DNA from: a bacterium
Lineage (GTDB): Bacteria > Patescibacteriota > Minisyncoccia > Phycocordibacterales > Zambryskibacteraceae
Direction: 5' to 3'
Assembly: GCA_030650605.1 (NCBI GenBank)
Contig: JAUSDP010000020.1
Span: 13,486-77,485 of the forward strand
Length of the DNA stretch: 64,000 nt
Within the stretch, counting starts at the first letter, position 1. Every line of letters begins with the position of its first letter. Below the pieces are notes generated by a model. It did no database searches. It saw only the letters and a list, made by a program, of their open reading frames with translations, and was not told the origin of the DNA. Below are positions 5,119-46,754 of the stretch, piece after piece. The position numbers and the translations under genes were made by a program.

Positions 5119-5121
5119 GGA

Positions 5122-26534: not shown

Positions 26535-27806
26535 TTAAAAACCTGCACGTTGCATTTCACCGCGTTTGGCTTCCAGCTTGGGGATATATTCTTGTCTTGC
26601 CTGTGACGCTAAAATTGCGCCAAGATAGATGCCTATTTTTTCTTGACGTTTTAAGTTTTCTAGCGCGAGGTAATTGGACTGTGCTTGCATAAACATAGAT
26701 TCACGCGCTACCGCTTCAGGTGTAGCCGCCGACATTGCGGTATACCATTCAGCGTTCCCATATCGACGCATAACGTCGATATCCATTAAGTCCATCCACG
26801 ATATTCCTTTGGGATATCCGCCTGCCGCTGCTGCACGCTTATTGTAGAAATCCTTGGCGCCTGGTGAATTGACCGTAATGGTACTCATCAAGGTTTTTGT
26901 GATGGCCTGCGGAGTTGAGTTGGCAGCAGATTCAGTGAATGGCTCTTTTGCCAATAAAAGAACTTGTTCCAACTCTTTTTGTAGACCAAAATATTGGCCA
27001 CCAAATGCACTTTTGGCCTGTTTTTCGGTCAGTGCTGCACCAAGCGCAGAGCCACCGCCAATATTACGTAAATACGCATTGACCGCATCCATTTGGCGGT
27101 CGTCAAATGTTCTTGTCGCGATACCTCGTTTAACTGAGCCAGCACCTCTAAATAATGTCTCTGGATCAACGTCGCCATTGGGATAACCACCCTCGCCTCT
27201 GCAATATTGTTTGGTTCCGGGTCCATTAGATTCATCTGCGGTACAGTACAAATTGCCGTCGACATGCTGTTTTGCTGTACGCGCATTGCTAATTTCTCGC
27301 GATGGACTATTTGCGGGTCCCACTTCTCTCACCGCTAGTGCTACTGCTGCTGTGCCAGGTTGTACGCGACCACCGCCACCGCCACTACCAAAGCGGCCAT
27401 AGGACCCCGCCACACTACGTCCCGTCTCATCGATGATGTCAGACATACTGCCAGTGGTACACGGATCCGCCGCTAATTGATATTTATCGGCGACCTCCGC
27501 ATTCTGTTTAATCCTAATGGCTTCTAACTGCCCATCCTGTAATTGTTTTGTTTGTTGTTCGGCTGCTGCCATCGCCTTGTCCGAGCTGGCACCTACGGCG
27601 GCGGCAGTTTGATTGATCGCGCCTATGGTGGTATTGAAATTATAGTTAGTTAAATTGGCCGCTGCTAACATCGCTTCCTGCCAAATTGCAGTCGCGATGT
27701 CAGTCACATTGGTATCCATAACACCTAAATACGCCCACGCCCCACCGGATGTCACAATTAACGATCCGGCGACAGAGATTGCAATGATTTTTTTTCGGAG
27801 TCTCAT
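26535..27806 (-). CDS. secreted protein with an N-terminal coiled coil, possibly transfer-related
   Basis: Signal peptide; coiled-coil Q/A/E-rich region; Gly-rich middle. Confidence 0.45.
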   Translation of the reverse strand: MRLRKKIIAISVAGSLIVTSGGAWAYLGVMDTNVTDIATAIWQEAMLAAANLTNYNFNTTIGAINQTAAAVGASSDKAMAAAEQQTKQLQDGQLEAIRIKQNAEVADKYQLAADPCTTGSMSDIIDETGRSVAGSYGRFGSGGGGGRVQPGTAAVALAVREVGPANSPSREISNARTAKQHVDGNLYCTADESNGPGTKQYCRGEGGYPNGDVDPETLFRGAGSVKRGIATRTFDDRQMDAVNAYLRNIGGGSALGAALTEKQAKSAFGGQYFGLQKELEQVLLLAKEPFTESAANSTPQAITKTLMSTITVNSPGAKDFYNKRAAAAGGYPKGISWMDLMDIDVMRRYGNAEWYTAMSAATPEAVARESMFMQAQSNYLALENLKRQEKIGIYLGAILASQARQEYIPKLEAKRGEMQRAGF

Positions 27807-28294
27807 TTAAAAATGCTCCTGACGGTTTCTAAAATTGAATTCGAAGGAACCTGCGCGGCCATTGGCGTAACAATGTTGTTGATCGTTTGAGTCGGGTTCT
27901 GAATAATATTTCCAACATTATTGATTTTTCCTAGAGTGTCACCGGCTCGCACTCTCGCCTGGTCACAAAATCTTGAAAATTGATTGTTAATGACCTGACC
28001 CATGACGCGGGAGACAATGGGACCGACTAAAGAAGGAAGTGGGAGATCCGAAGTGCCAGGAACAATAGCTGGTATTGACTTGAGCATATTGAAGCATTGG
28101 GTATTTGCATCACGAAGAGAGTCTTGTGTTCGCGCTACATATCCATCGATCGCATTCATACTTCTGTTCATTGCGGAGTTTCCTGAGTCAGCCATTTTTT
28201 GACCTGTCCCGCAAGTAACCGTCCCCGCGTTTACTTGTAGTGTTAGGATAGGTACCAGGACGGCGATCACAAATTTTCGTATTAACATTTTCAT
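27803..28294 (-). CDS. secreted small protein
   Basis: Signal peptide MKMLIRKFVIAVLVPILTLQVNA; 4-nt overlap with the next gene. Confidence 0.4.
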   Translation of the reverse strand: MKMLIRKFVIAVLVPILTLQVNAGTVTCGTGQKMADSGNSAMNRSMNAIDGYVARTQDSLRDANTQCFNMLKSIPAIVPGTSDLPLPSLVGPIVSRVMGQVINNQFSRFCDQARVRAGDTLGKINNVGNIIQNPTQTINNIVTPMAAQVPSNSILETVRSIFK

Positions 28295-29274
28295 GCTCCT
28301 TTGTTTTTGTCTTTTTCTGCGTTCGGTTGATCATTTCCATATTGCGTCAGCATTTCTGCATACGAATCAGCAGCTGCAATCAACGCGGCATAACTAGATT
28401 GTGAATATTTCTCAACAACTGTCATGACGGTTTCAATACCGCCCTTTTTTAAATCGTTTTTGGCGGCGTCGAATTTTGCTACATTTGTAGACGCCAAATC
28501 ATCAAGTCGTCCTTTGTTAAAACGAGCAATACGCTCATATTCGGCAGAAACGATGGCGCTAGCGCGATTTAGAAGCGATTGTCGATACCCTATGGCAGCG
28601 CTTGGTGCAATAGAGCGCACATCATCTTCGCTAGAAAATGCCAACTTGTGCGTTAGCTTGAGCAGTCTGGCGATCAACTCCGCATGATCTTCTTGAAAGA
28701 AATCGAACTCTCTCACGTTGTCGATAAAACGCTGGCTTGCGTCCATAGCGGTTAATCGCATCGCAGAAATACCATCCAATGGATCATTGATTCTATGGTT
28801 CCAATCCAATGCACCAATCTCCACGGAAAACGACTTAAATTCACGCATTCCGGCAACAGCAGTCAACAACGCTATTGAATCCGATATGTCGGAACTGTTT
28901 CTGTTCTTCCACGCATCACATACCATTCCATTGAGAATATTTGCCGTCATTGCGGTTGCCCAAGGACCTTCCGCAGATACCAGTTCAGCCATCGCAGGCA
29001 AGTGTTTACCCGACGTCGTGAGCAATTCAGAAACAATCTTTTTTTTCAGTGCGTCCGACGAAGCCGTGCCTGGTTTCGCGATCACAGCTTCTAAGATCGG
29101 TTGCAAAGCCTTCAATGCTGACAATCGCTTTTTAATGTCAAGGCTTAAAAAATGATTGTCAGTCGCGGCCTTTGTGGTGGGAAGAGTCGATGAATTATCG
29201 TCACTCTTCCCTACGTCGTTTGCCGAAGAAGTAGTGTTGGCATCCATCGAATTTACAGATTGCGTGGCTTCCAT
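28291..29274 (-). CDS. hypothetical protein
   Basis: 327-aa ORF. Confidence 0.45.
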   Translation of the reverse strand: MEATQSVNSMDANTTSSANDVGKSDDNSSTLPTTKAATDNHFLSLDIKKRLSALKALQPILEAVIAKPGTASSDALKKKIVSELLTTSGKHLPAMAELVSAEGPWATAMTANILNGMVCDAWKNRNSSDISDSIALLTAVAGMREFKSFSVEIGALDWNHRINDPLDGISAMRLTAMDASQRFIDNVREFDFFQEDHAELIARLLKLTHKLAFSSEDDVRSIAPSAAIGYRQSLLNRASAIVSAEYERIARFNKGRLDDLASTNVAKFDAAKNDLKKGGIETVMTVVEKYSQSSYAALIAAADSYAEMLTQYGNDQPNAEKDKNKGA

Positions 29275-29687
29275 TCTTTTGTCTCGCGATCGCCAAGGGG
29301 CGTTGTGAAGTATTCATAAATTTGATCTAGATTTGCTTTAACTCCATATGACAAAGGAGTGCCATCTAAAAGCAAATCTACTGAAAGTTGCGTCAACACA
29401 TATTTAAACAAAGGATGTTTATGTAGTACTTCAGCCGGCATAAAAATAGATTTTCCGAAAATTCCATTTTCATCCTCGGTGTACTGCACTTCGGATTCAA
29501 CATCAATGTTCACATTTGCATATTGACGCAAACGTGGGATTGCATAAAACGCGACCAATGGCAAAAATCCTCTAGGTGAAAACACTTCAGATACCGTTAG
29601 ATCAGTGCCATTGAGCGAAAATCTAATATTTAATTCCTCATAAATTGCCGTGAGAAAGGCTGCTGGAGAATCAATATTTAATTTCAT
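29253..29687 (-). CDS. hypothetical protein (possibly translated from a leaderless mRNA)
   Basis: 144-aa ORF; TTTACA-17-ATATAAT ends 3-4 nt before the ATG. Confidence 0.45.
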   Translation of the reverse strand: MKLNIDSPAAFLTAIYEELNIRFSLNGTDLTVSEVFSPRGFLPLVAFYAIPRLRQYANVNIDVESEVQYTEDENGIFGKSIFMPAEVLHKHPLFKYVLTQLSVDLLLDGTPLSYGVKANLDQIYEYFTTPLGDRETKEWKPRNL

Positions 29688-29723
29688 ATAATTATATATC
29701 TACGAACAGTTTAATGTAAAAAA

Positions 29724-30179
29724 TTAAGGACGTGAAGACATCAATTCGTTTTCCTGATCGACTGTCATATCCTCATCCAGTTCAAGCTCAGATTTGGTTT
29801 TAAAAGTTTTTCTAGTGAAAGTGATAATTCTGTTTGAAACATTCGTCAGATATTCACTCATCGCATCCTCAACCGTAATGGGGTCGGCGAACATTCTCTC
29901 TTTTACGACCTGCACGATGTCTTTTGGAAACACATCTTCCGGAAAAACTTTATTCACGCACAAGTTGAAAGGTAACTGTGTTTCGTGGCCGTTATTGATC
30001 CAAATTTCAGCATCCAATTTAACATCCTTCTTGCCGCGTGCCATATCAATGGCGGCCTCCCTGAGCATACTTGCCGCCAGACGCGAAATAGCGCGATCCA
30101 TATTTTCATCACTTTCCAAGAGTGCCAGCTGCAGTGGATCTCGGTCACGTATTTCTGAGCTAAAGTTAGTTTGTTGCAT
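29724..30179 (-). CDS. hypothetical protein
   Basis: 151-aa ORF. Confidence 0.4.
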   Translation of the reverse strand: MQQTNFSSEIRDRDPLQLALLESDENMDRAISRLAASMLREAAIDMARGKKDVKLDAEIWINNGHETQLPFNLCVNKVFPEDVFPKDIVQVVKERMFADPITVEDAMSEYLTNVSNRIITFTRKTFKTKSELELDEDMTVDQENELMSSRP

Positions 30180-30369
30180 TTGTCACTCCCACAGGTGTAC
30201 GGAGCGAGCGCAACATATTTTCTTCAATATCGTCACCCAACTCCATTTCACGACGAACAACAGACGAATTTTCATTATTAACAAAAACGCGATTGAAATA
30301 CTCTTGTTGAACAGTAGTCATTGATGAGCGGAGTCTTCGAATGATTACTTGATTGATTGATACGGTCAT
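30166..30369 (-). CDS. hypothetical small protein
   Basis: 67-aa ORF coupled to neighbours. Confidence 0.3.
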   Translation of the reverse strand: MTVSINQVIIRRLRSSMTTVQQEYFNRVFVNNENSSVVRREMELGDDIEENMLRSLRTPVGVTNATN

Positions 30370-30380: not shown

Positions 30381-32711
30381 TTAATGTTGGCCAGAACGCG
30401 CCGAAAAAACTTCACTATCTTCTATCTCAGAAACTTCATTTAAGTCCAGATTATTTTGATTTTCAAATGCAATACTCGCTTTTACGCAAAACGTGTTCAT
30501 CAAGTTAACTATTAGGACTCGGTCTAATGCTTTTGGATAGCGATCGTCATCTGCTGATTCATCACGATTTGCACGAACCAGAAAATCATCGATCCAACCT
30601 CGCTCTTTCATTTTTTCATAAGTCCAGGTCTCGAAACTACGAGCAAACATCTCCACTGGTGTCGCCCAATAATCTCCACGCGCTGTATCCTTTTTAACAG
30701 ATGCGAGCAGAAAATTTGTATGAAAAACAGAAGATGAAAAATAATCACGCCAAAAGAATTCCGGTTTCGGACCACACATCTTTGCTTGAACCATTTGTTC
30801 AGATAAAGTGACGATGGATGAAGCTAATGCCACTGAAAACGCAGTGTCGCCACTATTCGAAAAATGTTTAGCTAGTTCAGGCAAACTACCTTCTGACAAC
30901 GCCAAATCTATCATTTCAGCCGCATTCTCCCAACTTTGAGAATGGGAGACGCCAGTTGCTATCAACGCGCAGGCTACTTTATCTTTTAGAATCGATACTT
31001 TGTGAACTAGCGAGTTCGCGCATTTCTTTTCTGCGTCCGAATCGTCAAACTTTCGAATATAAATACGACGCATTGCCTCATCTAAAGCGTGGCAGGCATC
31101 GCCAAATTCTCTTATTGATTGTGGTGCTCTCGCATTGTGCCCTGCGGCGACAAACTCTCGTGGCATTTCCATGCTGATGTTATATATTTTTTGACGGCCA
31201 CGTCGCTGATCTTTATTAATAAAAAACTGAGACGCCATGAAACGCCCGGACTGAGAAATTTGCATATTATTTGTGCGCATAGCCACAATGGCGTGCTTTG
31301 CCAACATATAATCCAATGCATGTCCCCATTCGTGCGCAAGTGAGCCTGCACCACTCATCCGGGTGAGATGAATTACTTCGCGACCGGGTTCAAAATGTGC
31401 GGCGGCACCTGAGCGCCCTCTGGCACCAAAACTTAACGCCAATGCACCATCAAAGCCAATTTTCTTCTTCCCTATATCCATAATGGACACTAAGGCCGAA
31501 AACGCATCGTAAGCGCGATTCATCACTTCTTGGCGCTCTTGTTGCGGCAACCAATTTCCAAATTCAATAGCGCGAAATCCAAAATCTCCCATCAATTGTT
31601 CTGCTGTTACATCGAGTTGACAACGCCAATCAACCCCAACTTTTCTGACGTTTTCAAGGTGCGCTATTTTTGTACCATCCGCATCAATGTCTTCACTACT
31701 TTCTGACTTTTTCTGACGGGGAGCAACAAATTTTTCGGGAAATAGAATTGCCCATTTTTTCTCTTCTAGTTCCGTCTCATCCTCGATCTGAAAAAGATCC
31801 CGATGGCGAATTTTCTGATGGATGGGTGCGTCCACTTCGTGGTACCAACTGGAGAGCAGGCAATTGAACTGCCGGCCAAAGAGTCTTGATATATCTCGCC
31901 AGTTCCCAGTTGTTTCGATCCAATCAATATTGCCTGTTTTGGTATTTGTTTCACAGATCAATAAGTCGCATTCGCTTAGCGCTAGAAGGTATCTATCGTG
32001 GACATCTTTCGTTGTCTTCGGAAGTGGTTCAGCAAAAATGGAATTCTTTAAAACCGTCAATGTTTCAATATAAAGAAGTGCGTCTTTCGCAAATTTTGCT
32101 TCGGTTTCGTACAGTTTTTTAATATTCGAGTTGATTTTCCGACGAAGAACCCGGATTGCAAAAAGTGCCTCAGCACCGACACCGAGTGCTTTTGCATCGT
32201 CAGCAGTAACGGAAGGCCAAATATTGTCACGCATCACAGAGTTCGTTTTTTCGACTTCGGTCATGCCTTCGAGATCGGAGTAAATCAATACTTTAGAGAA
32301 AAAGTCTTTCCTTGCGCCGCCAATTTTCTCACCAAAATCCTCAATACGTTCTGCGTTTTCTGTTGTTCTAGTTCGTGTCTTTTCCCGAGATTTAGATGCC
32401 TTCTTCGTTAAAGCGTCATTCTTCTTTACCATGGCAGCATAAGCTAGAGCATCAATAAAGATCTGAGTATTTGGAATTTCTTGAATTAAGGACCTTAAAT
32501 CAACATCAATATGCGGAAACCAGCTTTTACAGTCGGATAGCGTAAAAGATGTACCAGGCTTTTTACACGTAAAGCCATTCGCAAACACATCAAAATTTTC
32601 GTTGGTAGAGAGATCTGCCCCTCTCACAAATAAGCGCGTTGGAGCATCTCTCTGCGATCCAGGGATCACAGAGAGATGTATACCAAACGCAGACAGATCA
32701 GGCCATTTCAT
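30381..32711 (-). CDS. large multidomain polyvalent-type protein with an HExxH zincin-like metallopeptidase motif
   Basis: 776 aa; HEWGHALDYM (HExxH) preceded by a Gly-rich segment; this architecture recurs in plasmid and phage polyvalent proteins. Confidence 0.45.
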   Translation of the reverse strand: MKWPDLSAFGIHLSVIPGSQRDAPTRLFVRGADLSTNENFDVFANGFTCKKPGTSFTLSDCKSWFPHIDVDLRSLIQEIPNTQIFIDALAYAAMVKKNDALTKKASKSREKTRTRTTENAERIEDFGEKIGGARKDFFSKVLIYSDLEGMTEVEKTNSVMRDNIWPSVTADDAKALGVGAEALFAIRVLRRKINSNIKKLYETEAKFAKDALLYIETLTVLKNSIFAEPLPKTTKDVHDRYLLALSECDLLICETNTKTGNIDWIETTGNWRDISRLFGRQFNCLLSSWYHEVDAPIHQKIRHRDLFQIEDETELEEKKWAILFPEKFVAPRQKKSESSEDIDADGTKIAHLENVRKVGVDWRCQLDVTAEQLMGDFGFRAIEFGNWLPQQERQEVMNRAYDAFSALVSIMDIGKKKIGFDGALALSFGARGRSGAAAHFEPGREVIHLTRMSGAGSLAHEWGHALDYMLAKHAIVAMRTNNMQISQSGRFMASQFFINKDQRRGRQKIYNISMEMPREFVAAGHNARAPQSIREFGDACHALDEAMRRIYIRKFDDSDAEKKCANSLVHKVSILKDKVACALIATGVSHSQSWENAAEMIDLALSEGSLPELAKHFSNSGDTAFSVALASSIVTLSEQMVQAKMCGPKPEFFWRDYFSSSVFHTNFLLASVKKDTARGDYWATPVEMFARSFETWTYEKMKERGWIDDFLVRANRDESADDDRYPKALDRVLIVNLMNTFCVKASIAFENQNNLDLNEVSEIEDSEVFSARSGQH

Positions 32712-32722
32712 GTTACTTAAAG

Positions 32723-33052
32723 CTATCCGCGAGGAGCAAAAGAATTTTCATGCTCGGTACTAATTAGGATGTTTTCCTTGACGGAAGTACCAGGCATAAA
32801 TGCCGCCATATCATCAGCAGAAGCCTGTTGCTGAAACATTTTTTCTGCTTTATCCAAAAAACCATTAATAGATTTCGCTGCAGTTTCGTAGTTTTCGGCA
32901 CATTGCTCGGCCAAGCCAGTGCTTACTGGTATTCCAAGACGACTGCCTACCAACACGATATCGTGCAAGTCTTTACCAGCTCCGCGAAATTTACCGATAC
33001 CATTCGCGATTTTTAGCGCTTCATTCATCATCATAACAACTCCTCTTCTCAC
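32723..33052 (-). CDS. hypothetical protein
   Basis: 109-aa ORF. Confidence 0.35.
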   Translation of the reverse strand: MRRGVVMMMNEALKIANGIGKFRGAGKDLHDIVLVGSRLGIPVSTGLAEQCAENYETAAKSINGFLDKAEKMFQQQASADDMAAFMPGTSVKENILISTEHENSFAPRG

Positions 33053-33055
33053 ATT

Positions 33056-33709
33056 TTACGACTGAATATTTTTACATTTTGGATATGCGTTACAACCCAA
33101 AAAGGTTTTATTGTTCTTGCTACTTAAGCGGGTTTCCATCTTTCCTTCGCCGCATTTGGAACAGGTTTCGCCATGACCTGGCAATGAATCAAACTGAGGG
33201 CGTTCTTTTTTAGCGTACCCTCCTTTTTCGCGCTTACTTTGAATGTGAGTACCATCAATTTCAAGCATGAGGGCGCGATCCACTACTTGCTGAACATATT
33301 TTTCAATTCCACTCATAAACGCTACAGGAGTCGTTTTTCCTTCTGCCACATTTTGCAATCCAAATTCCAATAAGGCGGTTCGCCCTGGATCCCCTAGGCC
33401 CTCATCAATAAAAGAATCCAACTCGATTGCCAATGGTGAGGCATCCAAATATTTTCCATCGCGAAGAACCAAACCATCCGCAACGACTTTTTCAATCACG
33501 TCAGGTCTGGTTCTTTCCGTACCCAAACCTTTTGTCTTCATTAAAATTGATCGCATCCGATCATCAGTGACGAATTTATGGACGCCAACCATGTCATCCA
33601 ATAGCGTCGCATCGGTATATCTTGAAGGCGGAGCGGTCTTTCTTGCATCTACCCGACCACCACGAACCGATACCTGTTGGCCGGCCTGAAATGGAAGTTG
33701 AGTGGCCAC
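33056..33709 (-). CDS. C-terminal fragment of a type IA DNA topoisomerase (Topo III-like) with a Zn-ribbon; GTG start right after a TAG
   Basis: KTAPPSRYTDATLL ... TKGLGTERTRPDVIEKV matches the PPxRYTEAxL ... GIGTPATRAxII region; C-terminal CSKCG ... CNAYPKC zinc ribbon. Confidence 0.6.
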   Translation of the reverse strand: MATQLPFQAGQQVSVRGGRVDARKTAPPSRYTDATLLDDMVGVHKFVTDDRMRSILMKTKGLGTERTRPDVIEKVVADGLVLRDGKYLDASPLAIELDSFIDEGLGDPGRTALLEFGLQNVAEGKTTPVAFMSGIEKYVQQVVDRALMLEIDGTHIQSKREKGGYAKKERPQFDSLPGHGETCSKCGEGKMETRLSSKNNKTFLGCNAYPKCKNIQS

Positions 33710-33715
33710 CTATTC

Positions 33716-33886
33716 AATCTCCGTACTTTTTTCAGGCTTTATCCTAGCGAAGTCGTATTTCACCAGATCAGGCGCTATTGACTCAACAAGGCTTTCTTGA
33801 TCAACCTCGGCAGTGCGAACATCTTGTTCGCCGTCAGCTCCAAAAACCAATGTTTTGTCGCTATTGGACGGTGTTATTGACATAGT
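33716..33886 (-). CDS. 57-aa ORF immediately upstream of the topo C-terminal fragment
   Basis: Not in the track; AAGGAATAACT-ATG RBS; ends in TAG directly followed by the GTG of the next ORF. Confidence 0.3.
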
Positions 33887-33892
33887 TATTCC

Positions 33893-34198
33893 TTAATGTG
33901 GATGGCTGTTTCTGGTTAGCTCGTCTCGTTGAACAAGTGCATTTTCAAATACTAAAACTTCGTTTTTCAATTTCTGAACAAAATGTTCTAGCCGGTTATC
34001 CTCGCTGAGCAAAAACAAAGAGAACCGTTCCAAACCTTTACGATCGGTTCTAATACCAATGTCTTCTTGATCTAATAGCTCCGATGCCTTCGATAAGAGA
34101 ATGCACTCATCTTCATCTGGCAAACGTTGCCGGAAATAGTTTTCCGCCGCCTGCTCAGAATGATAACGTTCCAAATCTTCGTATTGAATTTCATTCAT
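33893..34198 (-). CDS. hypothetical protein
   Basis: 101-aa ORF, 4-nt overlap with ardC. Confidence 0.4.
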   Translation of the reverse strand: MNEIQYEDLERYHSEQAAENYFRQRLPDEDECILLSKASELLDQEDIGIRTDRKGLERFSLFLLSEDNRLEHFVQKLKNEVLVFENALVQRDELTRNSHPH

Positions 34199-35172
34199 TT
34201 TGGGCTTATGGAAAACGTTTCTTCCTCATCCATTAGAGAAGAAATGCTGTCAAAATCAAAAGTAAAGTCGCTGAGATCAATTTCATTCATAGGAACGTAA
34301 TCGGGGTTATTTGTGAACTGCATCAAATAATCACTCGATTTTTCTGCCTCGGCCGCAGCTCTGAAGAAAACGTTTTTATCATTGTCGATCGCTTCCATCC
34401 AATCGCCGATATAACTTACGTGCTTATCGAGCTTATAAGAAACGCCAAAATCTGAGCATAAATAGACCGAAGTCAATTCTGCGACAAGTTCTTCTGCTGC
34501 ATAAGTTTTCATGTCACGATCCATGCGACCAGACGCCTTCGTCCAGTGAGCCATTTCATGTAGTAGGGTCGCGTAATATCCTTCCGTGTCATGAAATGAT
34601 TCTTTGGCTGGCATAGAAATCAAATCTTGACTCGGTATGTAACATGGGACATCTCTCATTCCAAACTCAAGGACGGCGCCAGATGCAGCGACCATCGCTT
34701 CAATTGCGTCATTTGAATGAATCTTAAGATCTGGAACGATAACCTCGGGCATGGAGGTCATTTGTTGAGCATTAAATACAGTGGCGTAAAAAGGACAAGG
34801 GCGATCGAGCTTCTTGTTTACGTAAACTGGCTTACCGGTTGCGGGATCGGTCTCATCAGTTTTGACACTTTTAGTGAACGACCAATATTCAATTGTTGTC
34901 CCCTTCTCTCCCTTTTTAACACTCACTTCAAGTTTTTTGGCTTGGTTGAAAGTCATCCAGCGAGAGTCGGTATAACCTCGCGCTAGAGCGACCATACCGA
35001 GCACAACTCGATTCCCTCCACGATAGCGCTTTCCGGTCGTCGGATTGAGTGGAGACATAACTGAAACAGCGCGTGCAGATGAAACGCTCCAATCCGGTTC
35101 CCAAGGCTTAAAGCCTAGGCTCAATTGATTAACAATTTCCTTGGAAAGGTTTTCGCGCAACTCTTTTGACAT
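34195..35172 (-). CDS. ardC: ArdC-family antirestriction / ssDNA-binding protein with a C-terminal zincin-like metallopeptidase
   Basis: N-terminal DUF1738-like region and C-terminal LLHEMAHWTKASGRMDRD (HExxH) as in ArdC; AGAGGA RBS. Confidence 0.8.
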   Translation of the reverse strand: MSKELRENLSKEIVNQLSLGFKPWEPDWSVSSARAVSVMSPLNPTTGKRYRGGNRVVLGMVALARGYTDSRWMTFNQAKKLEVSVKKGEKGTTIEYWSFTKSVKTDETDPATGKPVYVNKKLDRPCPFYATVFNAQQMTSMPEVIVPDLKIHSNDAIEAMVAASGAVLEFGMRDVPCYIPSQDLISMPAKESFHDTEGYYATLLHEMAHWTKASGRMDRDMKTYAAEELVAELTSVYLCSDFGVSYKLDKHVSYIGDWMEAIDNDKNVFFRAAAEAEKSSDYLMQFTNNPDYVPMNEIDLSDFTFDFDSISSLMDEEETFSISPK

Positions 35173-35383
35173 CACATCCTCTGTTTATTAATTTCGTATA
35201 TGTAATATTACACGGAAATTATAATAAAAGGAATTATGAAACGATACAAAATTAATTGGCGTACTAGCTACTCTACGAAATTCTATGGTGATTTTTTGTT
35301 TGGTTGCCGCTTCTCAAAAATTAATGCCTCACGGCCAATATAGCGAGATCGAGTTCCTACCTGCCGGCACCTTTAACTTCTTT

Positions 35384-35717
35384 TTCTCACCCCTGCACGC
35401 AGGGTATAACCATCCGAGCAACGTGTTGGTGGCACACGATCACTTCTCAACCCTGCACGCAGGGGGGATAACATGGCTGTCGGTGCTGGCGTCGTCATGT
35501 TTAATTTCTCACCCCTGCACGCAGGGGGGTAACAAACCGGTGTGGCACAACTCTTTACGTCTTCCATTCTCACCTCCGCACGCAGGGGGATAACAAGGTT
35601 AGTACAGTCGGTTGGTTTTCTGCCCTATTCTCACCCCTGCATGCAGGGGGATAACAGCATTGCAAATTGCCGGAGGATCGCCGGACCCGTTCTCACCCCT
35701 GCACGCAGGGGGATAAC
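35384..35717 (-). CRISPR. CRISPR array: 6 repeats of 27-29 nt (consensus GTTCTCACCCCTGCACGCAGGGGGATAAC on the plus strand) with 5 spacers of 32-33 nt; I-E-like hairpin repeat. Strand is uncertain: minus is inferred from the cas operon orientation and the degenerate distal repeat
   Basis: Repeats at 35384-35410 (degenerate, AGGGTATAAC), 35444-35472, 35505-35533, 35566-35594 (two substitutions), 35627-35655 (one substitution) and 35689-35717; spacers are unique. Confidence 0.85.
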
Positions 35718-35738
35718 TCTCATTATAACCTGATGATT

Positions 35739-36068
35739 TTAATCAATAATTTTGATGTCTTCACTTGTGCCAAGTTTTACATTACTATTTACGGTTAAAT
35801 ATTTTATTAGTTGTAGTCCGTGATTATCACAAACCTGTCTCGCATTTTGACCATGACTTGCAACAATAAAACCTGTTTCTGTTTTGGCAGCAAAAATGCA
35901 AATTGCCGAACATTCCGTATTTTTGATTTCATCCCAAATTTGCTTTGTTTTTCGTGAAGATAATTTCCAAACAAAAGTGCCTGGCCGAATCTCCAACATT
36001 ATCCGTTGCAGGTAACCAGTTAAACTTTTAGGGGCCTTTTTTATGTCCAAAACAACTAAACTAGTCAT
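35739..36068 (-). CDS. cas2: Cas2, I-E-like
   Basis: 109 aa; MTSLVVLD ... ETGF pattern aligns to I-E Cas2; 4-nt overlap with cas1. Confidence 0.85.
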   Translation of the reverse strand: MTSLVVLDIKKAPKSLTGYLQRIMLEIRPGTFVWKLSSRKTKQIWDEIKNTECSAICIFAAKTETGFIVASHGQNARQVCDNHGLQLIKYLTVNSNVKLGTSEDIKIID

Positions 36069-36889
36069 TTATCAGACCTCATTAAATGTTCGATAATATT
36101 AATAATTTTTGAAGCAGTGTTATCTCGCCTAAAGACATCTCTACACAACACTCGAATTCCAGATTCATTTACATTTATATTAGTTGAATATAATTCGATC
36201 GCAGCAGGAACAATTGTCTTAAATTTAATCGTGTCAGCAATATCAAATACAAATGATCGTGGATCGCCAGAATGAATGAACCCAATCGCCGGTGAATATC
36301 CAAGTGCAAGAATCGCAGCTTCGACCAATCCATAAAGCGCAGCGTTTGCTGTACTTATTGCGCGATTTAACGGATCTGACAACGAAGAACGTTGATCTCT
36401 TCCTAGCCATTTAACATTGTATCTTGCAGAAATTTCACGATACAAATCATAAACTTTTGCACCTTCGATCCCACGCAGTTGATCAATACTTCTTCCAGCT
36501 GGAGGTTCAACATCAAACATCTCCCGATAAATATTTCTCGCCATCTCCAAACGTCGCGATGGATCTAAATGAATGGAAGCTTGATGTAACAATTTTTGCG
36601 CTACAGCCCCACCTGGATTGCCAGCCGAATAACATCTAACTCCTGCCTCACCAATCCAAAGTATTAAACATCCCGATTCGGCACATGCCTTGACTGCGGC
36701 ATGTGTAACAACAGTCCCAGGTTCAATACAGATAACGCTTGTTGCACCGACAGGAAAATGTATTTTGCTATCGCCTTGTCGTAAAACGACCGCGTGCCCA
36801 TCAAGTTCAAGCACACCATATTCTGCATAAATAAAAGTTACCCGATCCACGATAGGGATCGGGTAATCTATCAACGAACGTCCACTCAA
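36065..36889 (-). CDS. cas1: Cas1 integrase, I-E-like
   Basis: 274 aa; long collinear similarity to E. coli Cas1 (GEAGVRCYSAG ... LRGIEGAKVY ... GFIHSGDPRSFVFDIAD). Confidence 0.9.
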   Translation of the reverse strand: MSGRSLIDYPIPIVDRVTFIYAEYGVLELDGHAVVLRQGDSKIHFPVGATSVICIEPGTVVTHAAVKACAESGCLILWIGEAGVRCYSAGNPGGAVAQKLLHQASIHLDPSRRLEMARNIYREMFDVEPPAGRSIDQLRGIEGAKVYDLYREISARYNVKWLGRDQRSSLSDPLNRAISTANAALYGLVEAAILALGYSPAIGFIHSGDPRSFVFDIADTIKFKTIVPAAIELYSTNINVNESGIRVLCRDVFRRDNTASKIINIIEHLMRSDK

Positions 36890-37602
36890 GCGATTAATTC
36901 CTTGGACATTACCCGATCAGTTTTTCTCCAATACGGCGGCCGGATACACGCCTGAACAGTGGCATAGGAAAATCCTGCTTTACCTGGCTCATCCAAAGGC
37001 AATACACGTAAGCGCCAATCATCTTCACGGTCATGTGATGACACATCAATGCTTGCTACACGACCGTAACCATTGCGTCCGACTTTGCCAATGTATTTAA
37101 TATGCTGAGTGAGATAATACTCAATGGCGTCAATGTCTCCAACGCCATACGCCGTAATATCACGGACCCAACGGCTTGCAGTCAACCATTGATAACCACG
37201 TTGTTGACCGCTAGCGGTTTTAATCCCAAACGTTTCAGGATCAATACCTCGCACGTTCCCATTTTTCAGAAAGCCTGAAACCCACACACCATCGGGCGTA
37301 TCTTCTGTATACAAATCCTTGAAGTACATCTCCGGATCAGATTTACGAATTTGATTCGACAGCATGATGTCACTCGATGCGGCCACAATCAATTTTGACG
37401 TTTTCCACACCCAGTCCTTGCCATCGGTGCGTGCAAGAAAATCTGACATATGCTGATCGGTCTTGGCCCAGCAATCATCCTCGCCAGCACGCTCCATTTC
37501 CTGCACGCTTGCATAGGCCAGAAGAGCATCCAGATGAATCGGATATTCCGAATCCATAAAAAGCGGCGAAGCAAGAGTGATCTTAACTTTAAAAGGCTGC
37601 AT
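36886..37602 (-). CDS. csf3: Cas5-group RAMP, Csf3-like
   Basis: N-terminal ASPLFMD ... HLD RAMP motif and C-terminal Gly-rich loop GKVGRNGYGRV; position matches csf3 in type IV-A; 4-nt overlap with cas1. Confidence 0.55.
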   Translation of the reverse strand: MQPFKVKITLASPLFMDSEYPIHLDALLAYASVQEMERAGEDDCWAKTDQHMSDFLARTDGKDWVWKTSKLIVAASSDIMLSNQIRKSDPEMYFKDLYTEDTPDGVWVSGFLKNGNVRGIDPETFGIKTASGQQRGYQWLTASRWVRDITAYGVGDIDAIEYYLTQHIKYIGKVGRNGYGRVASIDVSSHDREDDWRLRVLPLDEPGKAGFSYATVQACIRPPYWRKTDRVMSKELIA

Positions 37603-37631
37603 AAAAATGCTCCTGATTGAGGTGTTGATTT

Positions 37632-38846
37632 CTATCGAGCTAATTTTTTAGCAGCAGCTTTGGCTTCTTTTTCAAGTGCCTTTGCCGCCTTTTCTTCAGC
37701 TGCTTTCAGCGCTTTTTCTTCGGCTTTGCGCTCCTTATCAACCGCTTTGGCCGCTTTTTCTTCGTCAGTGGCAATCACTGGTGGCTTCATGATGGCGTCC
37801 AGACGCTCTCCACTCAATTCAGACGCAGCAATTTTCCACGCATTCAAATAGACAGCAATTGATGGATCAGCTTTGATCAACGAGTTATTGTTAAAAATCG
37901 TATCGGTCACATCAACATTGTCACCAGTATTAATCGCGATCGCCACATCATTGAGGCGAATACGGCCAAGTCCATTACGAGTTTGTCCACCGATGGACGT
38001 TTTTGCCAGTCCATCAAGACTTAACAAAAATAGACCAATTTGTGCATCGGTAACATCGGTCAATTCAACAGTAAAATCAAAATCAACGCCTGGATCTACA
38101 AATTCAAATGCACTCCACGCTTTAGTGCTGTTGCGACTTCCTTTTTCTTCTGCGTCCTTCGCTAGCTGATCCTCAATGATCAACCGCTGACGTGCATTAA
38201 ATTGAACTTCAAAGTCCGTTACAACACCTTCCATCCGATCTACATCAAGAAGTGCACTAACGTCATCGCCGCGTCGAAATGCCGCCCCGCGCGAAATATT
38301 CATGCCCGATGTTGCTTTCCCTACTCCCCGTGGGTGACCTACAGAAAAGCCAGATGATCGCAGACTATCCATGACGGGCACTGCATCAAGAACACGCATA
38401 CGACGACGCAACATACGCGGACCACCACCAAAAAGTCCAACATAAGGATGTGACGATACCTCCTTATATTCAGCAAACGTCAGATCGCGAGAATCGGGCT
38501 TTCCTGTCACAGCGCCGCAAGTAATTGCAGAGTACGTTTGCAAAGTGATCTTTTGATTCTTCTCACGAAGAACATTGACAAGAATTTGAGCACCCTGACG
38601 ACGCAAACGACCTGCAATATTATTCGCGGCAATGACAGCGACACCATAATCGAGTCCATCGACAGATCCAGGGGCAAAACGACGACGCTGAATACCGGCA
38701 CAGGCGATGCCTCCTTTGGTTCCGTTTTTAACAAGGCCATAGCCGGTTGAATCGCTTACTTCGTAGCGGAAGGTTTCTGGTGATGCGATGTGCAATGGAG
38801 ACAAAGTAGTCAAGATTGCGTGGATGGTGACTGATTTTTTGGACAT
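37632..38846 (-). CDS. csf2: Cas7-group RAMP, Csf2-like backbone protein, with an unusual Lys/Ala/Glu-rich C-terminal tail
   Basis: N-terminal TTLSPLHIASPE (Cas7 signature); about 350-aa RAMP body; C-terminal EEKAAKAVDKERKAEEKALKAAEEKAAKALEKEAKAAAKKLAR. Confidence 0.55.
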   Translation of the reverse strand: MSKKSVTIHAILTTLSPLHIASPETFRYEVSDSTGYGLVKNGTKGGIACAGIQRRRFAPGSVDGLDYGVAVIAANNIAGRLRRQGAQILVNVLREKNQKITLQTYSAITCGAVTGKPDSRDLTFAEYKEVSSHPYVGLFGGGPRMLRRRMRVLDAVPVMDSLRSSGFSVGHPRGVGKATSGMNISRGAAFRRGDDVSALLDVDRMEGVVTDFEVQFNARQRLIIEDQLAKDAEEKGSRNSTKAWSAFEFVDPGVDFDFTVELTDVTDAQIGLFLLSLDGLAKTSIGGQTRNGLGRIRLNDVAIAINTGDNVDVTDTIFNNNSLIKADPSIAVYLNAWKIAASELSGERLDAIMKPPVIATDEEKAAKAVDKERKAEEKALKAAEEKAAKALEKEAKAAAKKLAR

Positions 38847-38902
38847 GATATTAAGCTTTCTAGTTGAGTTAAATGAACAGCTAATAAATTACAAATACGG
38901 GA

Positions 38903-39670
38903 TTAATCACTGGTTTCTGCAGGTGTGAAATCATCGATACCGGCACCTGGGGTCAATAAGAATCGTAGTCCCCATGTTTCGCCTAGCGTCAAATTTCTCA
39001 AAAATTCAATTTCATTCTTAAATTGTTTCAATAGATCAGCATGTATTTCCGCTTTCGCTGGATCTGAAGGCATGTTGAGACGAAGCGTTCCATGTCCGAT
39101 TTCTTTCAAATCGGCAGACAAACGAAGAAATGGATGGACCAATGTTTTCGCCGTTGCTTCAAATCCAAACGCTTTACCAACCTGCTGACTGACCTCGACG
39201 GCCTGCATCAAAATGGCATGTCTGATTTTTACATCCCGCAGTCCAACCCGTACATAAAACAATTCGGGAGAGAAATTCACGGGCGCTCGCCATGCCATAT
39301 GTTGATTATTTGCCGTGGCATACACCGCCACAAAGGGTTCTTGCGGTGGATTAGTCAATGCGGAAGAAATTTCGAGCCACTTGCGAAATGGAATATAGGC
39401 AGACTTGGTAAATACGCCATATCCTGTTTCTTTCAATGCAGTTGCACTCATCAAAGTGGCGCAATATCCACACATCAAATCACTACCACGTGCAGCGAGA
39501 GACAAGTCATCCATGAAAGCTGCAGATACTGAGAACGGGCTAGACAGATCACCAACGGCAATATGCAATCCGCAAAAAGCACAGCAACCTTCTTTTTTGG
39601 AAGCAACCCCTTCAGGCGATTCACCTCGGGACTGCGTCACAATCACAGAGGAAGTTATAGTTAAGCTCAT
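38903..39670 (-). CDS. csf1: Csf1-like zinc-finger small subunit (Cas8-like)
   Basis: CCAFCG ... CGYC zinc finger; ATG overlaps the cas6 stop (ATGA) with GGAGGA RBS; position matches csf1. Confidence 0.5.
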   Translation of the reverse strand: MSLTITSSVIVTQSRGESPEGVASKKEGCCAFCGLHIAVGDLSSPFSVSAAFMDDLSLAARGSDLMCGYCATLMSATALKETGYGVFTKSAYIPFRKWLEISSALTNPPQEPFVAVYATANNQHMAWRAPVNFSPELFYVRVGLRDVKIRHAILMQAVEVSQQVGKAFGFEATAKTLVHPFLRLSADLKEIGHGTLRLNMPSDPAKAEIHADLLKQFKNEIEFLRNLTLGETWGLRFLLTPGAGIDDFTPAETSD

Positions 39671-40416
39671 CGTTCTATCCTCCGACGAATCAATCCATAT
39701 CCACGCGAACGCAGTTTTCCTGCCATCCAAGGACCATTTAGTGAAATGTTGGTACAAAAGGTAATATTCTTAAAAGCCGCTGCAGGAATCCCGGGCTTAA
39801 TCGGAATTGGTACTGACTCTCCTTCTAAAATATCCAAAATAAGACTGTCGTCAGATGGGATACCATGCTCTAGAAGATGTGGCGTACCAAGGTCTTCATC
39901 GAGCCACCGAGCCATAGAGATCAGACCGTTTAAAATTTCTTTTTTAATTTCAGGCGCTCGCTCTTGAGCCGTCACACCAAAAAAGTGAGAAAGCTTCGCC
40001 GGTTTTTTTGACACGATCAATTTACGGATGGAGTAAAGGATCGGTTCGCTCATTTGAAGCTCACAATCACCGTGTTTAAATTCCATACGGTATGGCCCAC
40101 CGAGATGTTTGGACAGTGCTGTCACGATCGACGCAGTATGTTCTGCCAATAAGTCCGTGCCAGATTTGCCAATACCATAGATGCGAATAAATCCGTTTCC
40201 ACCATCAAAAATAATGCTTGGAGGTAGACCGAAACCTTCTCCCTTGCGATCATCTCCATAACGACCCTGGAGTGTTTTACCATCTGGGCCGCGAGCGAAA
40301 ATAGCAGGATCAATTGATCGACCATCACAAGCCTTGGCCACTAACGATCGGGCATCTTCAGGATAGATCTGCTGCCCTTTTAGTACTTCAGGAAATAACA
40401 AAAGTTCTTTATACAT
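39667..40416 (-). CDS. cas6: Cas6 endoribonuclease (Cas6e/Csf5-like)
   Basis: C-terminal Gly-rich loop AGKLRSRGYGLI resembles Cas6e GxxKSMGCGLL; first gene of the operon. Confidence 0.6.
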   Translation of the reverse strand: MYKELLLFPEVLKGQQIYPEDARSLVAKACDGRSIDPAIFARGPDGKTLQGRYGDDRKGEGFGLPPSIIFDGGNGFIRIYGIGKSGTDLLAEHTASIVTALSKHLGGPYRMEFKHGDCELQMSEPILYSIRKLIVSKKPAKLSHFFGVTAQERAPEIKKEILNGLISMARWLDEDLGTPHLLEHGIPSDDSLILDILEGESVPIPIKPGIPAAAFKNITFCTNISLNGPWMAGKLRSRGYGLIRRRIER

Positions 40417-40574
40417 GTTGTGTGTCCAATTATTTGTTTAGTTGGTGTAACGAATATTACTCTACAAAAAAAATATAGCAAGTAGGAATTTAATTTTAAT
40501 AAGTAAATACACTTGATGAAATTTTCTTTATTTGGGCTATAATTTGCCCATATTAACCAATGCCGAGGATTCTC
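40417..40574. promoter_or_regulatory. divergent promoter region between the cas operon (minus) and dinG (plus)
   Basis: AT-rich 158 bp; TATAAT at about 40538 on the plus strand; TTGCTA-16-TAATAT on the minus strand. Confidence 0.35.
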
Positions 40575-42872
40575 ATGAACGCAGCCGCACAGCGAAATGT
40601 ACAAGTGCCTTTGGTAGATCCCGTCAAAAACCACGTCGGGGCCTCGATCTCAGATGCTTATCGCAGTCTTATTCGTTTTGCCATTAATGCAAAACTACCT
40701 CCGAAAGCAGTAGAACTTGAAGGTATTCCTCGTGTAAGCGTGTTTTTCCCGCCTGCGTTATTCGCTCAAATCTCAGAAATCGCTGAACTTCATCAACTGT
40801 CATATCAATCTACAGTAGCTGGGCTGGCGATAGCCGGTGCAGAAAAAATAGCCGAAAAAAATGAATTGGTAGAACAATTCAAAAGTGATGTTCCATTTAG
40901 GGCGCGTCCGGAACAAGTTCTTTTCTACCAATCAATTATGGCCGGGCTGTCATCATCTAAAATCGTCGTTGCAGAAGCCTCTACTGGCGCAGGCAAGGGA
41001 CGTGCATTGATGGCTGCCGCTATCGCATCAGCTCAAAACGGAAAACTCCCTGTCATCGTCGCAGCACCAACAATCGTCGTCGTTAATCAACTATGGGCTG
41101 AACTGCAGGTACTTCGCACGCAAGACAATATGGGACCGCTTATTTCAGCAACGATCCTACCTGGCTCTGCAGATCTGGCAGATGACGTCAAACTTTTGGA
41201 GTGGGCAAACGATCCTGATTTTAATCAACTCGATCCTGCGGTGACAGAATGGATCCTTAAGGGTGGACCTCACAAAGCTAACGATGCGATGGCGCAAGTA
41301 GCCAAAGAACAAGGAATTACCCTTTGCTGGATGATGTCCGACTTGCAAGAGATTGCAACTAACTTCCCTTCTGATGACTATGTTTTAACGACGAATAGCG
41401 AAGACAAGACAACGCTCTCGCAATCGCGAGAATTGTTAGCCAAAATTCGTGAAGCCGCCAATCGGAAAGACGTCGATAAAAATATGAACACGGTTCACGC
41501 CGGTGCGGACATTATCCTTTGCACCCACGCCATGTTAGCGCTTGGACAAATGACAAAATGGGTTGTGCTCCCGCAACCAAAAGTGCTGATCGTCGACGAA
41601 GCCCATCTTCTAGAAGAAACAATTTCAAGAATGAATAGTCAGCAAATTTCACTATTTTCGATTAGTTATCGCCTAAGCCGTTTTTGCCGCGCAACAGGGG
41701 CAGGAAAAGGAACCGTAGCCAGGGACACTCAAGCAAAGGCCAAACAGTTCCTGCGTACTTGTATGGAAATGTCAAACAATGATATTCGTCAAAAACTCAA
41801 TGACGATCCGTCTAAATATGACACTGTTCAAAAGGGATTGGCCAGTCTCGCCAATATGGTTAAAAACAAGGTTTTTAAGTCGGATCCAACCATTCAAAAA
41901 GATATGTATTCTCTTTTGTCTGGCACAGCCAATATGATGGAGAAGGATCGGTCCAAAAACAGTACGCATCTTCAATTCTCTCCTGATAGGCGGTACCCAT
42001 TGATCAGTGTCGGAGCCGATACGATCGGAATGCAGGCTGGAGCCATTTGGAAGACCGTAGACGGTGGTGCCGTACTTGCGTCGGCTACCATGTACATCAC
42101 CGATGAATATGGCAACCAGAAGTGCGATTACGTGGTTCGAAATCTTTCAATCCCGCTCTCCAGGCTGGACACCCCTCTTCCTGTCGTGAGCAGCTATATT
42201 TACACCCTTCCAACACTATACTTACCAAAAAAAGAAAACTATGCGGCACTGTCTCGCCCAGCATTGAAAGAGAGGGAGGACCCTCAAGTGGAGAAAGAAT
42301 GGTTGAAAAATATTGCTGATGTTGTCGCCAAAAATGCTAAAACATGCAAAGGCGGAACGCTGGTACTCACAAATTCCTATGACCAGATTGACGAGATCTC
42401 CACGCAACTGAAAGAAAAATACCCTGAGATCGCGGCCAGAGTCATTGTCCAGGTACGCAAGGCAAAATTTTCAGCCGCAGTGAACGCATTCACTCTGGCG
42501 CATAGCAATGGCGTAAAGCCGATTTTGATTGGGCTTGGCCCGGCCTGGACAGGGCTCAATTTGTCGCAAGATGTATCCGATCCTAAAAAAGATACTCTGC
42601 TGATGGACCTTGTCATCGCCTGTAGCCCGATCGGACTGAACCAAACTGCGACAATGCTTCGCCGTATTGAGCAAACCAATACAAGTGCGATAGCGAAAGA
42701 AGGACTACTTATTTTAAAACAAGGGCTTGGGCGGTTGATTCGTCGCGATGGTGTTGAAGGACGTCGAATTTGGATCTTGGATGGCAGAATCTGGTCAGAT
42801 AATTGGCTGAAGCAATTTACGGGGCCGGCTAAACGTTTGTTGGGTAAATATAAAAATGTGGATTATTTTTAG
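40575..42872 (+). CDS. csf4: DinG-family (Rad3/XPD-like) SF2 helicase, CasDinG/Csf4-like
   Basis: Walker A AEASTGAGKGRA; DEAH box VDEAHLLEE; about 766 aa; GAGGA RBS; divergent from the cas operon. Confidence 0.8.
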   Translation: MNAAAQRNVQVPLVDPVKNHVGASISDAYRSLIRFAINAKLPPKAVELEGIPRVSVFFPPALFAQISEIAELHQLSYQSTVAGLAIAGAEKIAEKNELVEQFKSDVPFRARPEQVLFYQSIMAGLSSSKIVVAEASTGAGKGRALMAAAIASAQNGKLPVIVAAPTIVVVNQLWAELQVLRTQDNMGPLISATILPGSADLADDVKLLEWANDPDFNQLDPAVTEWILKGGPHKANDAMAQVAKEQGITLCWMMSDLQEIATNFPSDDYVLTTNSEDKTTLSQSRELLAKIREAANRKDVDKNMNTVHAGADIILCTHAMLALGQMTKWVVLPQPKVLIVDEAHLLEETISRMNSQQISLFSISYRLSRFCRATGAGKGTVARDTQAKAKQFLRTCMEMSNNDIRQKLNDDPSKYDTVQKGLASLANMVKNKVFKSDPTIQKDMYSLLSGTANMMEKDRSKNSTHLQFSPDRRYPLISVGADTIGMQAGAIWKTVDGGAVLASATMYITDEYGNQKCDYVVRNLSIPLSRLDTPLPVVSSYIYTLPTLYLPKKENYAALSRPALKEREDPQVEKEWLKNIADVVAKNAKTCKGGTLVLTNSYDQIDEISTQLKEKYPEIAARVIVQVRKAKFSAAVNAFTLAHSNGVKPILIGLGPAWTGLNLSQDVSDPKKDTLLMDLVIACSPIGLNQTATMLRRIEQTNTSAIAKEGLLILKQGLGRLIRRDGVEGRRIWILDGRIWSDNWLKQFTGPAKRLLGKYKNVDYF

Positions 42873-44775: not shown

Positions 44776-44789
44776 TTTATCGTGCGTAT

Positions 44790-46696: not shown

Positions 46697-46704
46697 AAAA
46701 ATGA

Positions 46705-46730: not shown

Positions 46731-46754
46731 CAAACGTTTCTGAACATTGAAATA

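Follow-up and report, generated by a model that had tools for sequence, protein, structure and literature searches.

What is the function of a locus in which the gene for the antirestriction protein ArdC and the gene for a 776-aa protein with a zincin-type HExxH motif lie together, close to a CRISPR array, in a member of the Zambryskibacteraceae (Patescibacteriota)? The locus occupies positions 30381-35172 of a 64,000-nucleotide stretch of contig JAUSDP010000020.1 (assembly GCA_030650605.1, positions 13,486 to 77,485 of the forward strand), referred to here as the window, and all coordinates below are window positions. A preliminary description of this DNA had read the cluster as an anti-defence island of the kind found in the leading regions of conjugative plasmids. 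Our analysis points instead to a region that is probably the front part of a conserved operon in the backbone of an I-type conjugative element, where it would serve as an establishment and antirestriction module. Within this operon ardC is nested between the two halves of a split topoisomerase III (Topo III) gene, and the spacer between the first half and ardC is a cargo hotspot. The nested ardC, the split Topo III, which lacks a conserved active-site arginine, and the hotspot represent a new arrangement of known parts.

The type of element was indicated by its transfer genes. A gene on the minus strand at 5122..7305 encodes a protein of the DotA/TraY family (TIGR04346, 413.5 bits; cutoff 100). 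TraW is also encoded in the window (NF033888, 158.4 bits; cutoff 100). DotA/TraY and TraW are markers of I-type conjugation systems, which are Dot/Icm-like type IVB secretion systems (T4BSS). By these profile matches the element is conjugative and of the I-type or Dot/Icm kind, in agreement with the conjugative origin proposed in the preliminary description. A megablast search of 28-38 kb against PLSDB revealed nothing similar at the DNA level, and the element is a conjugative plasmid or an integrative and conjugative element of a poorly sampled lineage. In a Bordetella plasmid, IcmW adjoins the homologous gene set.

Between 26535 and 35175 every intergenic gap was shorter than 40 bp. The genes are arranged on the minus strand in the order ardC, orf101, orf57, topoC (the second half of the Topo III gene), orf109 and the gene for the 776-aa protein, which belongs to the LPD1 family; these are followed at 26535..30369 by five small genes (67, 151, 144, 327 and 163 aa) and a gene for a TraW-like protein of 423 aa, all syntenic in every relative. 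The four genes between ardC and the LPD1 gene were not covered by the preliminary description. We propose that a single promoter region upstream of ardC would drive 13 tightly packed genes, ending with the TraW-like gene. The presumed promoter/operator region (35173..35262, minus strand) is conserved, and the last ~85 bp before ardC were kept in every relative compared (L004, L005 and L009). These include a perfect 10-bp palindrome, GTAATATTAC, at 35202-35211, and the region gave a single match in the window with 0 expected. This conserved upstream sequence is likely to be an operator or promoter. As a separate observation, the conserved CCGTGTAATATTACATATACG at 35195-35215 contains the 10-bp palindrome and is unique in the window.

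Relatives of the locus were recovered through exact-protein look-ups. The ardC-topoC arrangement recurred in seven independently assembled lineages from different samples, and lineages diverged by as much as 62% (topoC) and 61% (LPD1 protein). For topoC, topoN (the first half of the Topo III gene), ArdC and TraW, the proportion of nonsynonymous differences was low (pN 0.03-0.2) against saturated synonymous differences (pS 0.6-0.9). Because synonymous divergence is saturated, the relatives are not near-identical copies of one contig. On this comparison of sequences, the genes from ardC to traW form a densely packed backbone operon whose synteny persists where protein identity has dropped to 38-39%. 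The cluster is therefore a fixed syntenic backbone under purifying selection and not a variable anti-defence island.

The strongest alternative is nevertheless that the cluster forms a leading-region anti-defence island of a conjugative plasmid, which would enter the recipient first, be expressed from early single-strand promoters and hold a variable collection of genes. The gene content suits this view. In addition to ArdC, the window encodes a 1773-aa protein with an N6-methyltransferase and a Strawberry-notch-type helicase (55253..60574, minus strand; identified by Pfam), which heads a co-directional gene run, as well as a thermonuclease (SNase, 52244-52801, minus strand) and RdgC (21065-21988), SocA and toxin-antitoxin genes; the methyltransferase-helicase, thermonuclease and RdgC genes had been noted before and are real. 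Nearly all genes in the window are co-directional, with ArdC, the methyltransferase-helicase, the toxin-antitoxin genes and SNase all on the minus strand, and the GC skew is negative throughout. In leading-region layouts such as that of F, the leading genes on one side of oriT and the tra genes on the other can point the same way. Leading regions are rich in genes of the antirestriction and related kinds listed above, all on one strand (PMC11541004), and the islands described by Samuel et al. (2024, PMC11541004) share with the window their antirestriction, methyltransferase and toxin-antitoxin content and their co-oriented genes.

Several results argue against a leading-region island. No relaxase, coupling protein or oriT was recognised among the ORFs scanned in the 64-kb window of the 164,825-bp source contig, so no position can be assigned to the cluster, and SSB, PsiB, ArdA and KlcA were not detected among the same ORFs. 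The strong repeated promoters listed in the preliminary description did not withstand analysis: 14 promoter-like sites were found compared with 14.5 expected, and no intergenic 9-mer was common to more than three regions. Folding of the ardC upstream region as single-stranded DNA gave no significant Frpo-like hairpin (z = -0.99 on both strands compared with shuffles; known Frpo sequences were not searched). In contrast to the published islands (PMC11541004), the window cluster is a fixed backbone that runs without a break into T4BSS genes and yielded no Frpo-like element. We regard the leading-region island as possible but doubtful; that the ardC operon may still enter the recipient early is a view we hold with similar hesitation. 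Two runs of 8-10 small co-directional ORFs each (68-166 aa), without a family match, were observed at 686-4440 and 15720-19121, and these suit a leading or establishment region better than 30381-35172 does.

The first gene of the backbone operon encodes an ArdC of conventional build. It extends over 34195..35175 on the minus strand and specifies 326 aa from a GTG start, or begins at an ATG at 35172; an exact look-up of the GTG-start protein returned no record, and gene callers take the ATG start. Pfam identified ArdcN (PF08401, DUF1738) at aa 4-117 (1.1e-29) and MPTase-PolyVal (PF18818) in the C-terminal domain (5.1e-36). Comparison with the R388 ArdC structures (6I89/6SNA) gave a full-length, colinear match over residues 5-286 (E = 1.4e-44), with the R388 alignment of the ArdC-N domain beginning at residue 9. 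The HEMAH motif lies at aa 205-209 and the glutamate helix reads AEELVAE; H205, E206, H209, E227 and E228 were invariant in ten ArdC sequences and align with HE202xxH/E229 of R388. These results bear out the DUF1738-like N-domain and HEMAH metallopeptidase first proposed for this protein, and they describe an orthodox ArdC whose gluzincin site is intact and whose N-domain is predicted to bind ssDNA. The protein is an additional member of an already known family, and its nearest counterpart among 185,579 species genomes has at most ~39% identity. Comparison with L004, the closest pair, gave a ratio of nonsynonymous to synonymous substitution rates (dN/dS) of 0.037.

The window ArdC shares with ArdC of R388/pSa (IncW) the two-domain architecture, the HExxH motif with its glutamate helix and a conjugative carrier. 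It differs in that its gene is flanked by the two parts of a split topoisomerase gene, in residing on an element of the I-type (T4BSS) and not the P/W-type, and in having a C-terminal extension of ~40 aa that ends in an acidic block (..MDEEETFSISPK). ArdC of R388 blocks type I restriction, and it worked when expressed in the recipient, with neither export nor protease activity required (PMC7213743).

The second zincin of the operon was examined by domain annotation against the polyvalent-protein catalogue. The 776-aa protein, encoded at 30381..32711 on the minus strand, matched Pfam LPD1 (PF18796) at aa 676-741 (7.3e-13, 48.8 bits against a cutoff of 27); this was the only catalogued domain, and the N-terminal 350 aa had no family match. 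The AlphaFold2 (AF2) model was confident (pLDDT 83.8, pTM 0.77) and revealed an N-terminal beta domain, a helical region and a gluzincin resembling lethal factor (LF), PPEP and MtfA. The HEWGH motif at aa 460-464 was invariant in 74 homologues. The other invariant positions in these sequences were H439/E441 on the preceding strand, Y681 and E687-x-x-A690-R691, in addition to H460-E461-x-x-H464 itself. Y681 and E687 sit inside Pfam LPD1 and are separated from the HExxH motif by a helical insert of ~220 aa. The gluzincin rule given for ArdC combines an active-site helix with a glutamate helix of the form (E,H)xx(A,F,T,S,G) (PMC7213743), and the invariant residues of the LPD1 protein fit this rule. 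The model thus predicts that the 776-aa protein is an LF/PPEP/MtfA-like gluzincin, and we infer that Pfam LPD1 corresponds to the Tyr/Glu helix of a lethal-factor-like metallopeptidase. This would give LPD1, so far without an assigned fold, a testable identity. In the N-terminal part, the motif RIEDFGEKIGGARKD at aa 121-136 has invariant D125, G127 and K135 and nearly invariant flanking glycines; apart from the zincin, nothing else in the LPD1 family is as well conserved.

With the gluzincins of the lethal factor, PPEP and MtfA kind the predicted domain shares the HExxH motif, a downstream Glu ligand, a catalytic Tyr and, in the model, the zincin fold. It differs from lethal factor (M34), PPEP and MtfA in its low identity (12-14%), in a catalytic domain split by the ~220-aa helical insert and in large N-terminal domains that carry the invariant GEKIGGARKD motif. 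The precise functions of LPD1 to LPD40 have been called elusive (Iyer et al. 2017, PMC5512222). The LPD1 polyvalent proteins of that study have in common with the window protein the LPD1 domain, an upstream HExxH core and occurrence on plasmids and in phages; the window version is solo, at 776 aa, and has a single predicted catalytic domain. The description of this protein as an HExxH polyvalent protein accordingly holds for the HEWGH motif and for the catalogue family, LPD1. In the strict sense it probably does not hold: the HExxH motif and LPD1 appear to form one catalytic domain in the model, and because only this one catalytic domain is predicted, the protein appears to be a stand-alone version of a module that true polyvalent proteins also contain. 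It belongs to a known, uncharacterised family for which a modelled fold assignment is added here.

In P0099 a homologue of the LPD1 module is joined to ArdC-N, and in P0117 one is joined to ArdC-N together with an M78/MPTase zincin. Because of these Rosetta-stone fusions, the LPD1 module is probably linked to ArdC in function. Other fusions of the module involve ART-PolyVal, LPD5, LPD16, MuF-C, YodL and DUF3560, and the multi-domain homologues include P0020 and P0122 as well as P0099 and P0117. Distant homologues (27-34% identity, ~1050 aa) are encoded on ~110-kb Dot/Icm-type plasmids of P. syringae, Bordetella, Xanthomonas and Cupriavidus. Two of these plasmids, from P. syringae and Bordetella, were inspected, and in both the LPD1 homologue lies downstream of a giant Strawberry-notch gene, like the layout of the window, and a giant protein of the Strawberry-notch type is also encoded upstream of the LPD1 gene in the relative L090. 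Proteins of the ArdC and LPD1 types are common on plasmids that disseminate resistance genes.

A further possibility is that the zincin domains of ArdC and the LPD1 protein serve the element's own regulation as proteases comparable to IrrE/ImmA, which would cleave a repressor and thereby switch on transfer or SOS-like functions. MtfA, a structural neighbour of the 776-aa protein, takes its name from titration of the regulator Mlc. HTH regulators are encoded in the window, and the palindrome at the ardC promoter resembles an operator. The protease domain of ArdC resembles IrrE and Spartan, and in R388 antirestriction did not depend on its activity (PMC7213743). Set against this, no cognate repressor gene is adjacent, and the fusions of the LPD1 module to ArdC-N, to an ADP-ribosyltransferase and to MuF-C occur in delivered proteins of the effector type, which points to action in the invaded cell. 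We consider a regulatory role of this kind unlikely, and prefer an establishment and antirestriction function for the module.

The third component of the operon is one part of a type IA topoisomerase. The topoN gene (50100..51620, minus strand) encodes 506 aa that match Toprim and positions 9-299 of Topoisom_bac and contain domains I-III with the catalytic Tyr. The topoC gene (33056..33709, minus strand) encodes 217 aa that match positions 299-410 of 411 of the same Pfam profile and Zn_ribbon_Top1, comprising the end of domain II, domain IV and a C4 zinc ribbon. Alignment with E. coli TopB structures in the PDB placed topoN at residues 2-457 and topoC at residues 463-611, with no overlap and no loss. 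The break, at position 299 of the Pfam profile, corresponds to TopB residue ~460, in an acidic surface loop of domain II. The halves are 16.4 kb apart in the window and 1.6 kb apart in L005, and ardC, orf101 and orf57 lie between them. Relatives L005, L006, L009 and L090 have the order topoN, ardC, an ORF of ~100 aa, an ORF of 50-60 aa and topoC, and in L004, L091 and L094 ardC and the small ORF or ORFs stand immediately before a stand-alone topoC. In the relatives, topoC homologues have 213-217 aa.

The two pieces together retain the features of a complete enzyme. The sequences TEKPS, GDIDREGQ and SY(IGTD) were kept in four clade members, and the Toprim E, the DxD, the catalytic Tyr and the HH motif were strictly conserved. 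The active-site motif of topoN is SYIGTDAR, with the clade form SYIGTD(A/S)R. With E. coli TopB the joined pieces share the full domain set, the Toprim acidic residues, the catalytic Tyr and the zinc ribbon; unlike TopB, the window enzyme consists of two polypeptides, with at least three genes between them, and has Gly in place of an Arg. Plasmid-borne Topo III genes are known, for example traE of IncP, and the window pieces are likewise plasmid-borne. Topoisomerase II of phage T4 is split into gp39 and gp60 by a mobile-endonuclease gene. That enzyme resembles the window one as a DNA-topology enzyme divided into two subunits by DNA inserted in its gene, and differs from it in class: the window enzyme is type IA and not IIA, and the inserted ardC and small ORFs lack a homing-endonuclease domain. 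No description of a split plasmid Topo III was found in the literature searched. A split intein was considered and rejected, as the extensions past topoisomerase homology are too short (~16 aa in topoN, where the alignment ends at residue 490 of 506; 3 aa in topoC).

An insertion that interrupts a gene usually signals inactivation, and a conserved active-site Arg has been lost from topoN, so the split could be taken for a decaying pseudogene or an assembly artefact with a recently inserted ardC and no functional meaning. This is very improbable. The same break and the same nested ardC were present in the seven independent assemblies, with topoC identity down to 38%; frames were intact, catalytic motifs were conserved and dN/dS for topoC was 0.022 in the closest pair. 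Because pS is saturated while pN stays low, both halves are maintained genes, and the comparisons indicate that the Topo III split is ancient, with both halves under strong purifying selection. A search of 1.84 billion representatives also identified further topoC-like proteins (210-224 aa) whose initial Met falls at this break, which suggests that the split has a greater age or a wider distribution than is apparent from the seven lineages examined. These stand-alone proteins, P0127, P0143, P0144, P0185, P0186 and P0199 (31-41% identity), and the loci L092/L093, have Met at the break point; P0127 has no ardC upstream.

A first metagenome scan with topoC returned nothing, and an alignment-based second scan returned mostly intact, ordinary Topo III genes. 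As 76 of 80 metagenomic Topo III loci had an uninterrupted upstream frame or reached the contig end, only four were candidate splits. A genome scan with ArdC found a topoisomerase beside ArdC in none of 80 loci. Two gut metagenome contigs, L096 and L098, have ardC directly 5' of an intact Topo III gene (3198-6498), and because they pair ardC with an intact gene, the association of ArdC with Topo III extends beyond the split. The nested ardC would tie ArdC functionally to DNA-topology enzymes.

A phage or phage-plasmid, with the cluster as a phage early or internal-protein module, is scarcely credible: homologues of the zincin core (aa 350-506) occur in Stx-converting and other phages and the model of the 776-aa protein matches phage proteins annotated 'large polyvalent protein-associated domain', but DotA/TraY and TraW are present, 10 unassigned backbone ORFs had no match in PHROG, and the phage structural genes that the preliminary description had named as contrary evidence (capsid, terminase and tail genes were sought) were absent from Pfam and NCBIfam scans of the window ORFs.

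If the region is the front of a backbone operon with an establishment and antirestriction function, its products could act together on the transferred DNA. By analogy with R388, ArdC would coat the incoming single strand and block type I restriction; the LPD1 zincin would cleave a protein of the recipient or a co-transferred one; and topoN and topoC would reassemble non-covalently into a type IA enzyme on the transferred DNA, its chemistry possibly altered. ArdC, topoN and the zincin might be exported through the T4BSS into the recipient via their C-terminal tails. All three tails are rich in glutamate. The Dot/Icm E-block consists of 3-6 acidic residues beginning 11-18 residues from the C-terminus (PMC3096851), a description that the three tails fit, and the acidic tails may be a translocation signal of the Dot/Icm type. 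A motif defined post hoc, in which [SGA]P comes after an acidic block and falls within the final five residues, occurred in 9 of 81 window ORFs compared with 0.45 expected (11914-12894, 25324-25749, 25807-26316, 32723-33052, 34195-35175, 43453-44775, 45031-45336, 54344-54682 and 54688-54906).

A more daring proposal joins these elements into one kit exported by the T4BSS, made up of ArdC, the two-piece Arg-less Topo III and the LPD1 zincin. Splitting the topoisomerase at its acidic loop would have given topoN an E-block-like end and permitted translocation in an unfolded state, and the pieces would reassemble with ArdC on the incoming strand. We rate this as a long shot. If it were true, an enzyme without the rejoining Arg may hold or nick DNA and not relax it, and would be a new kind of DNA-processing partner in conjugation. 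A conserved two-subunit type IA topoisomerase without this residue also offers a natural experiment on dividing such enzymes.

Several observations weigh against the establishment module and its proposed workings. In all four clade topoN proteins (window, L005, L009 and L090) a Gly is found two residues after the catalytic Tyr, at the Arg position of TopA R321/TopB R330, and the Arg is retained in the seven closest full-length relatives. This Arg near the catalytic Tyr of type IA enzymes is described as strictly conserved and critical for DNA rejoining (Narula et al. 2011, as cited in PMC7823277). With Gly in its place, the enzyme formed by the two pieces may differ from an ordinary topoisomerase. 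For the LPD1 protein, a Foldseek search of the model against the PDB gave nothing significant, and a profile search of PDB sequences gave noise and a weak match to lethal factor (E = 0.3). Comparison of the LPD1 and ArdC families by hhalign was weak (22% probability), and a sister relationship of the two zincins was not demonstrable from it. The LPD1 gene is also absent from L005, L006 and L094, which retain ardC and topoC, and is therefore dispensable. The tail motif was defined after inspection of the data and fades in the distant relatives L009, L090 and L094; for these two reasons T4BSS export is put forward as a hypothesis only. Export is moreover not required, since R388 ArdC acted in the recipient without it and without protease activity.

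The small genes of the operon were also compared among relatives. The start of orf101 (33893..34198, minus strand) overlaps the ardC stop, and its product is small, acidic and all-helical. Its five homologues all fall within the clade, with identity of 48-80% among loci and 87% to the database homologue P0275, and dN/dS was 0.084; the AF2 model had low confidence (pLDDT 62) and was not used for a fold search. The TAG stop of orf57 (33710..33883, minus strand) abuts the GTG start of topoC. This ORF is poorly conserved (dN/dS 0.26-0.5), and an ORF of 33-60 aa is found at this position in every relative. At 33710-33712 of the window, as in L004, only one TAG stands between orf57 and topoC, which share a frame; in L005, L009 and L090 the two ORFs are in different frames. 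Stop-codon read-through was rejected on this ground, and because the frames differ in these three relatives, translational coupling is the likelier arrangement. The conserved orf109 (32723..33052, minus strand), between topoC and the LPD1 gene, has the tail ..EHENSFAPRG.

The CRISPR locus beside ardC is part of a separate unit. An accessory island of 14.8 kb (35260..50099), delimited by empty sites in L005 and L009, fills the spacer between topoN and ardC, which measures 108 bp in L005. The island contains a gene for a 144-aa secreted protein, DUF5131, HATPase_c_3, two HTH-HipA cassettes and a type IV-A1 CRISPR-Cas system. The last of these is a discrete module of 7.8 kb (35258..43037) defined by NCBIfam, PADLOC and blastn break points (35258/35270 and 43029/43037), with the genes csf4/dinG, csf5, csf1, csf2, csf3, Cas1e (282 bits against a cutoff of 216) and Cas2e and an array of 6 I-E-like repeats and 5 spacers. 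The spacers had no match in PLSDB or among the compared loci, and the island had no long flanking direct or inverted repeats and no integrase or transposase. In L004 and L091, a HipBA cassette (86-87% nucleotide identity) is located beside ardC and the CRISPR-Cas module is absent; it matches the first of two tandem HTH-HipA cassettes at 43131-46696 of the window. In L090 a single 240-aa ORF occupies the site and separates topoN from ardC. Comparison of these loci identifies the topoN-ardC spacer as a cargo hotspot.

The nearest CRISPR repeat (35381-35411) lies ~206 bp from the ArdC start, and the gene for the 776-aa protein is ~2.7 kb from the array. The statement that the cluster sits immediately beside the array thus applies to ardC and not to the 776-aa gene, and the adjacency of ardC is incidental because cargo was inserted between topoN and ardC. 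Type IV loci are reported to be, almost without exception, devoid of adaptation genes (PMC7038947), and a hotspot-captured type IV-A CRISPR-Cas with its own Cas1e-Cas2e bears on how type IV systems acquire spacers. Elsewhere in the island, at 47088-49500, the genes for the HATPase_c_3 protein (591 aa) and the DUF5131 protein (234 aa) overlap. In PADLOC, the product of the DUF5131 gene matched two candidate defence families, PDC-M41B and PDC-M30B (E ~1e-49).

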